Notes under the pieces: generated by a model
The model's database searches: none
The model's input: the letters and a program-made list of their open reading frames with translations, nothing else
Told to the model about the DNA's origin: nothing
Made by a program: the position numbers and the translations under genes
Shown here: one piece after another, positions 1 through 4,538 of the stretch
Numbering within the stretch: the first letter of the stretch is position 1
Layout of the letters: every line of letters starts with the position of its first letter
IMG/VR virus record: IMGVR_UViG_2541047861_000003
Strand: one strand, 5' to 3'
Length of the DNA: 4,538 nucleotides
DNA from: a virus
Lineage: Duplodnaviria; Heunggongvirae; Uroviricota; Caudoviricetes; Autographiviridae

Positions 1-98
1 GAGTCTTGAGTCTTGAGTCTTGAGTCTTGAGTCTTGAGTCTTGAGTCTTGAGTCTTGAGTCTTGAGTCTTGAGTCTTGAGTCTTGAGTCTTGAGTCTT
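1..98 (-). repeat. Heptanucleotide VNTR: 14 perfect tandem copies of GAGTCTT (+ strand), i.e. AAGACTC on the coding (-) strand; array is cut by the window start so total copy number is unknown
   Basis: Direct reading: positions 1-98 are exactly 14 x GAGTCTT with no interruption. On the - strand all three frames are open through the array; on the + strand every frame hits TGA (GAG TCT TGA). Confidence 0.98.
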
Positions 99-103
99 AA
101 CAT
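1..103 (-). CDS. neuO: Polysialic acid O-acetyltransferase NeuO, 5' end only (start codon plus repeat-encoded N-terminus); partial, continues beyond window start
   Basis: ATG at 103..101 with AGGA at 114..111 (7-nt spacing). Frame reads ATG TTA then (AAGACTC)n, giving M-L-(RLKTQDS)n. This matches the recalled neuO 5' heptad-repeat architecture of prophage CUS-3. Gene body is not in the window, so identity rests on the repeat signature and genomic context (directly downstream of an endosialidase tailspike). Confidence 0.75.
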   Translation of the reverse strand, partial: MLRLKTQDSRLKTQDSRLKTQDSRLKTQDSRLKT

Positions 104-110
104 ATTAGTA

Positions 111-191
111 TCCTACGTTATTTTACCACTAGTTACTTTTCTTGTCATTAAAAAGCATTTAAATTTTTATATTTAATTTCGTTGACGTCAA
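111..191 (-). promoter_or_regulatory. neuO upstream region: Shine-Dalgarno AGGA (114..111) and candidate sigma70 elements (ATGACA 148..143, 17-bp spacer, TAAAAT 125..120; alternative TTGACG 191..186 with AAAAAT/TAAAAA about 16-17 bp downstream)
   Basis: Hexamer matching by eye on the reverse complement of an AT-rich spacer. The proximal candidate would place the transcript start inside the SD, so the distal candidate may be the real one. No experimental support. Confidence 0.3.
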
Positions 192-256
192 TGTTTTTTG
201 CCAATGTACTTACTTCTTTATGTGATCAGTTCATATTTTTGACGCCAACGAAACAT

Positions 257-3202
257 TTAGTGCTTCCCTTCTATTAAGTCTAACCTAGCTTTTATTCTTT
301 CTATTTCTCTGCGCTGCCATGCTGCCTCGATATAGAATAAGAGATCAGGTCTGACCCCCCATCTAGATCCTGCTGGCGTTATTTCAACGCGCTCAATGAT
401 GTCTTCCATTACCATCACTGGATTATCATCCTCATCAACAATGATGCTCCCGTCATTATCAGTCAGCGGCATTTCCCTTTGGCCAGTAATGACGTCATCA
501 TATACTGCGGGATAATCGTCATAGCAAAGAAAGGCATAGCGGCATGTTGTGCTTTCTTCTTCCATGAGTCCGTGAGAAATAAGAACATCACGAAGTTGCT
601 GCGCGATTACACCATGATGTATCCTCGCCCCTTCTTCCCCCTTTATAGCGACAGCGTTCAGCCATTTATAAGCGATATACCTGACGTCACCCCAGGCATC
701 CAGCAATGTTTCGTCAGGAGAGACCGGCTCTGTCTTTAATGTTCCGTCACTGGTAACCACAGGATTGGAGCCAAGATAAACTATCGAGAACCTGTTTCCC
801 GGACCACCAAGAGCATTTACATTATCAAGATAAGGTTTAACATCTCCGTTCTCAAAAAGATGTTCGAGTGCGTTATATACCGCGCGACGTGGAGTACTGC
901 TTCTGGAACCATGCAACGTTATCATTGCACCATCTGCTGAAGACGTTGTTTCACCGCCGCTAACGATTAATCTCTGAGCGGTAACATCATCAGACGGTAC
1001 TTTCTTCGCAATAATGGCGTAATTACCCTCAAGTTTGACTTCCGCGCGAACTTGTCCTGATGTACCTGCATGGACAGTCAGTGACTGGACGGCAACATCA
1101 TCTGTGAAATCAACGGGTACAGGAACCGTCCTCACGCCTGACGTCGACATAAAAGTAGGAAGCGTTCTGTTAGGAGTGGCTCCGTAGACAAAATCCCTTG
1201 AAACAAATTCTTCCTGTTTAATTTTCACCCTGAAACAATACAAATCAGCCGGGTGACCATCGTGAACATAAGGATATTTTCTGTTGTTATCCCCTATGCT
1301 CCATGGGTTTAGAAAGTCTTCCCCACCGAAAATGTAGTACAGCCAGTTGTCTTTGATACAAACTGAACCAACACCAACCGCAGAGTTAACTATTCCGCCC
1401 TGATAAATCTGATCAGTAACATTAACCCACTCTACATTATCCAGACTCCACTCATTGACGTTAACTCTGGTCATAAATGTTCTTGGATAGTTTCCTGCAT
1501 AACGGTTATCAGGTTCTCCTCCTTCCCACTCACCAAATGCGCGCTCACTGCCAAAAATAATCAGCTCATCGCCAACTTTGGCAAAAGGAAGGTTTGAGTG
1601 ATGAACATTATTTGGGAAGCGAAGAGAATTCCATGATGTACCTAAATCAGAGCTTCTGTGCAATGAACTACCGGGTTGAGTACTTAATGTCCCCCTGGTC
1701 GTCAGATACAGAATGCCATCATAATATTTTACACATGGCTCAGATGCATTCGCCTCATATTCTGCAGGTATGCGTCTGCGAACAAAGCTACCAGGAGAAC
1801 CGAAAGCATCAGAGAAATAGAGTATCCCAAGCTCGCGTGGACCAATATCACCATTATGGTAGCCAACAGCAAAACTGTTATCGCTAATCGTCGCAAAACT
1901 GTGAATCTCAGTAACAGGAGTGCTTCCGTCAACAAAAGAAGGAATAGTTCCAAGACTGGTTTTTCTCCATGGTGACGAGTGAAATGATGTACCAAAACTC
2001 CAGTATCTACCCTCGTTATTCTGATCCACATCCTGGGTATTTTGCGTCGTAACTGTAAAAGTATTTTTATCAATAACAGTAGTCACCGTCATATTCCCGG
2101 TAACACCTGTAACACCAGAGTTTGAGAAGTTGACAAAATCACCAGCAAATAATCCGTGATCAGTAATGCGAATATAAGCGACTTGCTGATTTGCTGCTTT
2201 CGTTATACCACCATAAACGCGAAGGCTGCGACTCATTGGGCGATCCCACAACTCTGCAACCTGCAGTTTATTTCCGCTCACGGTCCGCGTCTCAATTACA
2301 GCAAAAAGGCGATTTCTGACAACCCCCATACTCATGCAGTGATAGTTAACTGTGGGATAGTTTTCATGTAAATCTGTAAGCCATTCCGGCGTTGTCCAGG
2401 TCTTCCCGTCATCTCCTGAGCGAACCCATGCAACATGGAGGTTATTTACACCATGGCGGTCTCCAGCCATAAAAGGCGCATAGATGACATTGTCATATAC
2501 AAACGTTTTATCCTGCGTCCAGGCGTTGTACCACGGTGTATCTGTAATTTTAAATAACTCTCCCTGGATAAAATCTTCAGAAACATAAAAAAGAGGCTGA
2601 CCCGGTATTCTCTCAAATAAAAAACGAGCATTTTTAAATCGACTGACATCTGGAAGAGTTGATACTTTAAAAGTAAGCCCTCGCCCATCTATCTTTTCAC
2701 CACCTGTTGCAACAGAAAGTAATTCTGATAGAGCTGATGTATCATCATGAACACCATCACCAATAGCCCCCCAACCTCTTACATCATAACTGTCTCTCCA
2801 TCTTGCTATCTGAAGTTTTGGGTATTTATTCGCTCCATCTGGGTCTTCTAATTGCTGCCGTAGTTGATCAGGATCATACTTCAGCACATTCTGGAAATAG
2901 AACTGCTGTACGCCATACGCATCGTACACAGCCATAGAATGGCCTTGCACAGTTACGAACTTGGCAATCCGTCCGTTATATACAGGGTAACCAGCAGCGT
3001 TAATGATGATTGGTTGCGAAACAGGAACGTGAGAGCCGTCTTCGTTCTCTACATAAACCTGAATCCGGTTTTCAGGATTTACCGGGTCAGTGTCAATTTT
3101 ACCGATATAAATTTTGCCATTGGCTACGGCTTTAAAAGAACGCGCCATAGTGAAGAGTTGCGAAGGCATCGATACAATCACATTGGCTGTAATGTCTGTC
3201 AT
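257..3202 (-). CDS. Tailspike protein, endo-N-acetylneuraminidase (endosialidase) type, with P22 gp9-like N-terminal head-binding domain and C-terminal intramolecular chaperone domain
   Basis: 981-codon ORF, ATG 3202..3200 with GGAG 8 nt upstream, stop TAA 259..257. N-terminal ~113 aa (MTDITANV...VLKYDPDQ) closely resemble the recalled P22 tailspike N-terminus. Two bacterial-sialidase Asp-box motifs S-x-D-x-G-x-T/S-W are present: SGDDGKTW (aa 262-269, nt 2396..2419) and SSDLGTSW (aa 517-524, nt 1631..1654), both verified against the nucleotide sequence. C-terminal region resembles endosialidase chaperone domains. Confidence 0.92.
260..790 (-). other. Tailspike C-terminal intramolecular chaperone-like domain; predicted autoproteolytic Ser818 (nt 749..751) with Lys823 as partner
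   Basis: Motif [13 protein letters not shown] with Ser and Lys 5 residues apart, followed by ...[10 protein letters not shown]...[13 protein letters not shown]..., resembling the recalled serine-lysine dyad region of endosialidase/tail-fibre chaperone domains. Exact domain boundary is approximate. Confidence 0.55.
2864..3202 (-). other. Tailspike N-terminal head-binding (virion attachment) domain, P22 gp9-like; module junction at the YDPDQ motif (nt about 2864..2881)
   Basis: Similarity to the recalled P22 gp9 N-terminus ends right after ...NVLKYDPDQ; the sequence downstream is unrelated to the P22 receptor-binding domain. Confidence 0.8.
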
Positions 3203-3260
3203 TTAATTTGCTCCAGATGCAAAGAATCGCCGCAGCATGGCCACGGTGAATTTTGGGCAT

Positions 3261-3283
3261 AAAAAAACCCAGCCGAAGCTGGG
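3261..3283 (-). terminator. Rho-independent terminator downstream of ant (between ant and the tailspike gene)
   Basis: On the - strand: CCCAGC-UUCG-GCUGGG (6-bp GC-rich stem, UUCG tetraloop) followed immediately by seven U (+ strand 3261-3267 is AAAAAAA). Lies 19 bp after the ant stop codon. Confidence 0.75.
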
Positions 3284-3302
3284 TCGTTGCGTTGGTTATC
3301 TG

Positions 3303-4205
3303 TCAGTAATTATGTACTGAAGGAGGTAATTCTTTATTCTTAAGTCTCATCCATGCGGAAAGATTCGTTGGTCCGTCTGGCTCATTGATATCAACATCTC
3401 GTGTGTGATTGATTAAAACGTCTCTCGCCATATCGATAATACGGGAGAACTCATAACCGCAGTCATGACATCTGCCGGAATAGTTCGATTGAATTTGTTT
3501 TAGCGCCGGATACAGTTCGCGGAATAATGCCTGTGAGCGGTTGGCATAATCCCATAGCCATACAAGGCTGTTTGCTTCTTTTGCAGAAAGCTCGTTGGTT
3601 TTCTTCTCTTGTTTGCCGATGAACTCACCTTCAAGCACTACCCTGTGGATGTACTCTACTGCTTGTGGTATCTGAGATGCATCAAGCTCTTCAATACTTT
3701 CCACATTGAAACGCTGATGAATCATTGCATAAGCTTCTGGGTACATTAGATGCTTTTTGCTGACTAGCATATTTACAGCATCACGAAGCGGAGTCCTGTC
3801 ATCAACAGATGTTTTCTTCCGTGCATTTGCTGCCTCTCCCTTTGTCCAGTAGTCATGCAGCACAGTAAAGCATTCTTCCTGGTACTGAATCAGTTTATCG
3901 CGGATGTCAGCACGAACTTTCTCAGGGTTGATGCTGAACAGCCATCCATTTAACTTCTTCAAAGGAAGGCAGAGTAGCTTACGAAGCTTACCATCAGCGG
4001 CAACCATGTTCATATGAACACAGTTGAATTTGCTAATCTGCTTCATGAGTTTTGTTTGCTGCGTTGACCAGCTCATTCCGAGGTTTTCAACGATTGGCTT
4101 CATCGCAACATATGCAACTCCGGCAGCCATGGCGGTGATAATTTGCTGACCGTTGAATGGCACGTAAGAGGTGTTCACTGCTTCTAAAATTGCTATACTA
4201 TTCAT
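3303..4205 (-). CDS. ant: Antirepressor Ant (P22 immI-type), 300 aa
   Basis: ORF in the supplied track runs 3303..4271 from a GTG. Preferred start is the internal ATG at 4205..4203 ([21 protein letters not shown]...), with GGAG at 4219..4216, giving 300 aa, which matches my recollection of P22 Ant length and N-terminus. Stop TGA at 3305..3303. Confidence 0.8.
4191..4199 (+). promoter_or_regulatory. Candidate extended -10 promoter (TGcTATACT) on + strand inside the first codons of ant, oriented antisense to ant (Psar-like)
   Basis: TG-n-TATACT at 4191-4199; no good -35, consistent with an extended -10 promoter. Predicted start about 4205-4208, opposite the ant start codon and SD. Confidence 0.35.
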
Positions 4206-4287
4206 GTTGGTTTTTCTCCACGGATTTACCGACAACCGAAGCCCTGACTGTTCCAGCAGTTGGGGCTTCACTGTTTTGATTTCTTTG
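4206..4287 (+). ncRNA. sar: Predicted sar-like small antisense RNA complementary to the ant translation initiation region
   Basis: Candidate promoter at 4191-4199 and a strong terminator-like hairpin 4238-4269 followed by a U-rich tract, delimiting a transcript of roughly 70-80 nt antisense to the ant SD. Matches the recalled arrangement of P22 sar RNA. Prediction only. Confidence 0.4.
4238..4287 (+). terminator. Intrinsic terminator-like hairpin for the antisense (sar-like) transcript
   Basis: + strand RNA GAAGCCCUGACUG-UUCCAG-CAGUUGGGGCUUC forms a 13-bp stem including two G.U wobble pairs, followed by ACUGUUUUGAUUUCUUUG. On the - strand the two wobble pairs become C.A mismatches, so the structure is stronger on the + strand. 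Confidence 0.45.
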
Positions 4288-4443
4288 CCGCATCAAGCAT
4301 CACTTCTGAAAACGTGCGCTTGCCACTGAATACTCTTTCTCTTCTCAATTTTTCGTTCGTGCCAAATGATTCGCCATGAACAAAATTTGGTCTTAAAATG
4401 GTAATCGCAATCTCTTTGACTACTGCATCCAAGCGAATCACAC
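4268..4443 (-). pseudogene. Possible 3' remnant of a gene upstream of ant, truncated by the IS insertion (58 codons open to the IS boundary, no usable start codon)
   Basis: - strand frame reads ...[56 protein letters not shown], with stop TGA 4270..4268 overlapping a GTG (GTGA) in the ant frame. Does not match recalled P22 Arc. An open stretch of this length could also arise by chance (about 6-7 percent expectation). Confidence 0.25.
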
Positions 4444-4538
4444 TGAACCGCCCCGGGAATCCTGGAGACTAAACTTCCTGAGAAAGAGGTAAACAGGATG
4501 ACTAAAAATACTCGTTTTTCCCCCGAAGTCCGTCAACG
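4444..4538 (+). mobile_element. IS3-family insertion sequence (IS629/IS1203/IS3411-like), left terminal region; partial, continues beyond window end
   Basis: Sequence from 4444 begins TGAACCGCCCCGGGAATCCTGGAGAC..., a typical IS3-family terminal inverted repeat starting with TG, followed 54 bp later by an orfA start whose product begins MTKNTRFSPEVRQ, which I recall as the IS629-group OrfA N-terminus. Confidence 0.7.
4498..4538 (+). CDS. IS3-family transposase OrfA, first 13 codons only (partial)
   Basis: ATG at 4498 with GAGG 8 nt upstream; translation MTKNTRFSPEVRQ runs off the window end. Confidence 0.7.
   Translation, partial: MTKNTRFSPEVRQ

Follow-up and report, generated by a model that had tools for sequence, protein, structure and literature searches.

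The tailspike gene and its prophage setting

The DNA analyzed here is a stretch of 4,538 bases (the window), which showed 98.5% identity to phage CUS-3 (CP000711.1) over positions 1–3635 and 100% identity over positions 1–4443 to many E. coli K1 chromosomes (S88, APEC O1, MS7163). At least 80% of the window was found to be present in 109 genomes. The window belongs to an E. coli K1 prophage that is P22-like and of the CUS-3 type. Its minus strand carries, in order, a 57-codon ORF, the antirepressor gene ant, a tailspike gene and the start of neuO, and the same gene order is annotated in the CUS-3 record and in RefSeq. The tailspike gene, identified from the ORF list and the Pfam domains of its product as an endosialidase gene of the siaK1 type, is positioned at 257..3202 on the minus strand and consists of 981 codons and a stop codon. 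An IS3-family element was observed in the immunity region, at the right end of the window. Two short ORFs overlapping the tailspike gene in other frames, 463..591 (minus) and 479..739 (plus), were without support and were taken as spurious.

The 981-aa tailspike is identical to RefSeq WP_000129907.1 (strain MS7163), which is labeled only as "phage tailspike protein." Compared with SiaK1 of CUS-3 (ABQ88383.1), 6 of the 981 residues differ, all of them within residues 43–121. The CUS-3 record annotates the gene as an endosialidase tailspike and cites direct-assay evidence of endosialidase activity (PMID 16689790); this is the enzyme with which CUS-3 degrades the K1 capsule. In some K1 genomes (H16, H17, H26), the annotation gives the tailspike as two parts with an IS between them.

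At the domain level, Pfam analysis revealed the features of an endosialidase tailspike, namely, a beta-propeller catalytic domain, a nested beta-barrel, an N-terminal extension, and a stalk, preceded by a P22-type particle-binding N-terminal domain. The last of these, Head_binding (PF09008), covers residues 1–113 (E 3.8e-64), and among solved structures the chains of P22, Sf6, and related tailspikes matched residues 1 to about 120. It is followed by End_N_terminal at residues 146–212 and by End_beta_propel at residues 213–662, within which End_beta_barrel is nested at residues 324–406; the endosialidase profiles PF12217, PF12195, and PF12218 matched with E-values of 1.2e-233, 1.2e-46, and 2.9e-37, respectively. 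The stalk, End_tail_spike (PF12219, E 6.7e-78), occupies residues 663–817 (752..1216, minus strand) and aligned in 1V0E, 3GVL, and 3GW6 with the stalk of endoNF. The mature K1F endosialidase chains 1V0E and 3GVL aligned with the protein at more than 1,040 bits. Directly after the stalk, at the extreme C-terminus, lies the domain considered in the following, residues 818–981. It extends from S818 to H981 (260..751, minus strand) and comprises 164 aa with a mass of 18.7 kDa. The interval 260..790, which had been singled out in an earlier note on this DNA, codes for residues 805–981 and so takes in the final 13 stalk residues together with the entire domain.

A Peptidase S74 domain at the C-terminus

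The earlier note had pointed to the motif LGSNPVVTS(818)DGTLK(823)TEP, followed by a conserved C-terminal part of about 160 aa, as the mark of an intramolecular chaperone domain of the endosialidase kind, with Ser818 and Lys823 as its catalytic dyad. The translation of the ORF contains the 17-residue motif at residues 810–826 with exactly this numbering, and 163 residues follow S818. The profile search that the note had proposed was run, and PF13884 ("Chaperone of endosialidase," the Peptidase_S74 profile) matched with 40.8 bits (E 2.8e-10), above its curated cut-off of 22 bits. The match covered profile positions 1–57 of 58 and residues 818–878 (569..751, minus strand), the first matched residue being exactly 818. 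In NCBIfam, no match was obtained to the whole protein or to the domain. The PHROG tail-spike families matched the domain with their C-terminal ends.

The likeness to the endosialidase chaperone domains was borne out by PDB 3GW6, the uncleaved S911A precursor of the K1F endosialidase, which aligned over residues 786–979 with an E-value of 4.8e-66. In this alignment, NPIVT-A911-NGER-K916-TEP of 3GW6 lies on NPVVT-S818-DGTL-K823-TEP, so that the dyad falls in the columns of A911, where the Ser had been mutated, and of K916; R897 of 3GW6 belongs to an NRF motif that lies on N803-R804-F805. The mature chains 1V0E and 3GVL have their last residue in the column of T817. Weaker structure matches were to members of the same domain family, i.e., the GA-1 neck appendage protein 3GUD and the tail spikes 9VVR, 7Y5S, and 6EU4.

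The key codons, all on the minus strand, were placed as follows. S818 (749..751), aligned with position 911 of 3GW6, is the predicted nucleophile and would be the first residue of the fragment after release, and K823 (734..736), aligned with K916, is the predicted general base. T817 (752..754), with which the mature tailspike is predicted to end, aligned with the last residue of 1V0E/3GVL and with T910 of 3GW6. In the stalk, R804 (791..793) is the counterpart of endoNF R897 according to the NRF motif, and D793 (824..826), judged by its distance from the scissile Thr, corresponds to D1239 of T5 pb1, which positions the Arg. G864 (611..613) is the counterpart of endoNF G956, HHGVIAQQ being aligned with HFGVIAQQ of 3GW6. 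A conserved segment at residues about 943–979 (beginning AGSRWGVRP; 266..376) aligned with the C-terminal segment of 3GW6 and, by analogy with the T5 and MyRF homologues, is expected to end in a helix forming a trimeric coiled coil. A single-sequence AlphaFold2 model of residues 698–981 gave a mean pLDDT of 37, too poor for fold comparison, as expected for an intertwined trimer modeled without an alignment. From the identity of about 53% to the solved domain, we infer the fold of 3GW6, with its tentacle hairpins and C-terminal trimeric coiled coil.

Conservation of these residues was evaluated among relatives. A word-indexed protein search with residues 797–981 returned three matches, too few for this purpose, and an exhaustive HMMER search with residues 790–981, at a threshold of E ≤ 1e-3, returned 4,701 cluster representatives; taken with the PF13884 and 3GW6 matches, this is far beyond what chance would give. 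The best 150 of the 4,701 representatives, a diverse set, were aligned to the query, and all counts given here refer to them. Lys was found at the position of K823 in 146 of 147 relatives and Ser at that of S818 in 142 of 147, with Cys in four more, so the dyad is near-invariant. The sole relative seemingly without both Ser and Lys has them at the S-x4-K spacing after a shift of two residues. The count was 142 of 147 for Thr at 817 and likewise for Asp at 819, 133 of 135 for Asp at 793, 138 of 145 for Arg at 804, and 146 of 148 for Gly at 864. Among these best 150 representatives, each of D793, R804, T817, S818, D819, K823, and G864 is therefore 95–99% conserved. Further conserved positions were G799 (142/145), K854, R860, and Q868 (148/148 each), H862 (147/148), R951 (149/150), and R964 and R965 (148/150 each), and the C-terminal segment as a whole showed conservation at A944, G945, R947, W948, G949, R951, E959, R964, and R965. 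The domain match ended no more than 10 residues from the C-terminus in 130 of the best 150 relatives. Alignment coverage was lower in the middle of the domain, at roughly residues 880–940, a dip that fits the variable "tentacle" hairpins of the solved homologues (PMC3742443, PMC4690869, PMC8326128).

A tblastn search of phage genomes showed 100% identity of the domain with its CUS-3 counterpart and 52.8% identity over 163 aa with that of K1F-type phages. The domain was found on endosialidases of the K1F, phi92/phAPEC8, K1E/K1-5, and 63D types and likewise on K5 lyases and the gp12 protein of Bacillus phage GA-1. With all the defining features examined at the sequence level present, the domain is a true member of the Peptidase S74 family and not a mere functional analogue. 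A separately encoded chaperone was considered and rejected, as no such gene follows the tailspike gene and the next gene is neuO.

Predicted maturation and alternative readings

In the homologues, the domain drives the trimerization and folding of the upstream triple beta-helix and then removes itself, acting as a folding sensor in that the Ser-Lys dyad and an Arg are correctly placed only in the folded trimer (PMC3742443). S911 and K916 of endoNF are indispensable, and R897 of the stalk, which is supplied by the neighboring subunit, is crucial (PMC8326128); N912 and G956 have also been reported as essential (PMC3742443). The scissile bond of T5 pb1 is Thr1263-Ser1264, and the Ser departs with the chaperone, as in K1F. 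In pb1, Arg1250 of the neighboring chain is located between Asp1239 and Thr1263, and Lys1269 activates the Ser (PMC4690869).

Every residue for which a catalytic role has been assigned in the homologues, i.e., D793, R804, T817, S818, and K823, has its counterpart in the translated tailspike. Residues 818–981 are thus very probably a Peptidase S74 intramolecular chaperone that folds the trimer and then cleaves itself off at T817|S818; the sequence itself shows where the domain lies and that it is complete, and its chaperone function and cleavage are deduced from homology. Following translation, three chains would associate through the C-terminal domain, which would end in a helical coiled coil, and this association would nucleate the folding of the intertwined beta-helical stalk (residues 663–817). 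Correct folding of the stalk would bring R804 of a neighboring chain, held by D793, to the T817-S818 junction, and K823 would then activate the hydroxyl of S818, resulting in a cut of the T817|S818 peptide bond. According to the computed masses, each 109.5-kDa precursor would yield a 90.8-kDa mature chain ending at T817 and an 18.7-kDa fragment. The cut is predicted at T817|S818 because a Thr-Ser bond is the one cleaved in the characterized homologues, because the catalytic offsets are the same as in T5, and because mature endoNF stops at the Thr corresponding to T817. The mature end had been placed earlier "at or near residue 818"; the neighborhood holds, and by homology the terminal residue would be T817 and not S818 itself.

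Residue 819 is Asp in place of the essential Asn912 of endoNF, and this was counted against the assignment, but Asp is the consensus of the family (142 of 147 among the best 150 relatives). It has also been reported that the Asp equivalent to N912 is needed for processing in MYRF (PMC3742443).

The domain could be a genuine S74-type chaperone that aids trimerization and yet stays on the mature spike, uncleaved, in a tailspike of the P22 type. Such a reading, which we consider very unlikely, would be consistent with a review table in which only the full-length mass of 109 kDa is given for the CUS-3 enzyme (PMC5380687) and with PDB 9VVR, an 843-residue tail spike chain that matches residues 786–911 of the query and so contains the junction. 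It is opposed by the presence of all the catalytic-role residues (D793, R804, T817, S818, and K823), by the finding that non-cleaving homologues needed a mutation of the Ser or the Lys (PMC3742443, PMC4690869, PMC8326128), and by the identity of about 53% between the stalk and domain and those of endoNF, a cleaving enzyme. A slim chance, somewhat below that of plain retention, was allowed for a second role of the released 18.7-kDa trimeric fragment or for cleavage that is conditional in the P22-type context. If cleavage were conditional, some spikes would keep the domain and would differ in polysialic acid binding or in the processivity of degradation.

Whether the domain is at work in the source strain is a separate matter, since the gene might be a relic in a decaying prophage and the domain, intact in sequence, might be idle there. 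The IS3-family insertion in the immunity region and the IS-split tailspikes of H16, H17, and H26 would speak for such decay, but the ORF is of full length and many independent K1 genomes encode the very same protein; this reading, to which a smaller chance still was given, bears on expression and not on the identity of the domain. That the S-x4-K motif arose by chance in an unrelated C-terminal extension has a negligible probability. A Ser and a Lys five residues apart do commonly arise by chance, but the explanation is refuted by the homology of the whole domain to 3GW6 (E 4.8e-66), which places the dyad in homologous columns, by the PF13884 score above the curated threshold, and by the near-invariance of Ser and Lys across 147 relatives.

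The assignment of a self-cleaving chaperone domain is correct but was already known. Endosialidases of this kind are the enzymes from which the domain family was defined, so the biology is not new. The gain is one of annotation: the protein can be described as an endosialidase precursor of 109.5 kDa with predicted maturation to 90.8 kDa at T817|S818. Such a description is of practical use where the enzyme is to be produced, be it as a reagent for polysialic acid or as an anti-K1 agent. In expression constructs, the C-terminal domain is to be kept for folding, and the predicted mature product would be without it.

Comparison with known self-cleaving domains

A close counterpart is SiaK1 of CUS-3, the product of the same gene with the same neighbors (neuO–siaK1–ant), whose chaperone domain is 100% identical. 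The two differ only in the six N-terminal substitutions and in the IS3-family element that the source of the window carries in its immunity region. The CUS-3 tailspike has been described as a modular protein that joins a head-binding part of the P22 type to a catalytic part of the K1F type (PMC5380687).

In endoNF of K1F (3GW6; MEROPS/Pfam Peptidase S74, PF13884), the domain is likewise placed after the same kind of stalk and can be aligned to within two residues of the C-terminus. The spacing of the dyad is the same (S818/K823 versus S911/K916), R804 corresponds to R897 and G864 to G956, and a Thr precedes the Ser in both. The two proteins differ at the residue after the Ser, which is Asp819 here and Asn912 in endoNF, and the domain in 3GW6 has about nine residues fewer than that of the CUS-3-type protein in the variable mid-domain. 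The particle-binding N-terminus also differs, being of the T7-fibre type in K1F (PMC5380687) and of the P22 type (Head_binding) in the present protein.

The more distant pb1 of T5 shares the catalytic offsets: relative to the Thr, the Arg lies at −13 and the Asp at −24, and the Lys follows the Ser at +5 (PMC4690869). Its domain is reported as 18% identical to the K1F domain, has shorter beta-hairpin "tentacles," and is carried on a fibre, whereas here it is carried on an enzymatic spike (PMC4690869). Outside phages, the ICA domain of MYRF/MyRF has a Ser-Lys dyad of the same spacing with an Asp after the Ser, and its self-cleavage depends on trimerization (PMC3742443, PMC8326128). Unlike the phage domain, it cleaves independently of stalk residues, and it stays membrane-bound and releases a transcription factor, whereas cleavage of the tailspike would serve the maturation of a virion protein (PMC8326128).

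Sequences flanking the tailspike gene

The 5′ end of neuO lies downstream of the tailspike gene. On the minus strand between positions 1 and 103, the heptamer AAGACTC (plus-strand reading GAGTCTT) is repeated in tandem 14 times without a mismatch, just inside an ORF that has its ATG at 103..101 and reads MLRLKTQDSRLKTQDS... on the same strand. This array, which corresponds to the 'poly(psi)' tract at the 5′ end of neuO, is cut by the window start and continues beyond it, the 14 copies being those inside the window. The neuO gene of CUS-3 encodes a phase-variable O-acetyltransferase of the K1 capsule, of which the full-length protein is produced only when the number of heptamers is a multiple of three. 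Just upstream of the neuO start, a promoter-like site was found at 120-148 (minus strand), consisting of ATGACA and TAAAAT separated by 17 nt, with a TG before the second hexamer and 10 of 12 positions matching, its designation being based on this consensus match only.

On the other side of the tailspike gene, between the end of ant, the antirepressor gene, and the tailspike start, the minus strand at 3266-3285 contains a GC-rich stem-loop that runs into a stretch of T (GACCCAGC-TTCG-GCTGGGTT TTTTT). From its sequence, this element looks like an intrinsic terminator, and it falls inside the region designated 'boundary sequence bsq1' in the CUS-3 record. On the plus strand at 4206-4272, facing the 5′ end of ant, the antisense RNA sar of the P22 immunity I region (Rfam RF00262) was matched over its full length, scoring 83.9 bits where the gathering threshold is 43.

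At its right end (4444-4538, plus strand), the window runs into an insertion sequence of the IS3 family, of which it contains the left end. This element starts TGAACCGCCCCGGG... and has the ATG of its transposase orfA at 4498 (MTKNTRFSPEVRQ). Comparison with strain E10 placed the junction within arc, the repressor gene, a single sense codon ahead of its stop, and in most K1 genomes the match to the window stops at position 4443.

Variants in relatives and in other K1 genomes

Among the best 150 of 4,701 cluster representatives matching the chaperone domain, which were aligned to it, the nucleophile Ser was replaced by Cys in 4 of 147 (P0018, P0026, P0031, and P0032, all outside the window). 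The motif in these proteins is ...T-C-D-G-x-E-K, and Asp, Arg, Thr, and Lys are retained along with the other invariant residues. The four may represent a variant of the self-cleaving domain that uses a Cys-Lys pair.

In three E. coli K1 genomes matching the window (H16, H17, and H26), the tailspike region carries two separate annotations, one as 'endosialidase catalytic beta-propeller domain-containing protein' and the other as 'phage tailspike protein', flanking an IS3-family transposase. This arrangement suggests that the tailspike gene is disrupted by an insertion sequence in the prophages of these strains.

Mosaic composition of the tailspike gene

By sequence comparison, the tailspike gene is a mosaic. 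The segment at 289-2681 (approximately residues 175-971), covering the catalytic part and the chaperone domain, is 99.5% identical to the tail fibre gene (1,039 aa) of the Uetakevirus vB_EcoP_ZX5, and the segment at 2871-4270, comprising the head-binding part and ant, shares 94% identity with Salmonella phage epsilon34. The six differences from the CUS-3 tailspike were all found to be located in the head-binding part.
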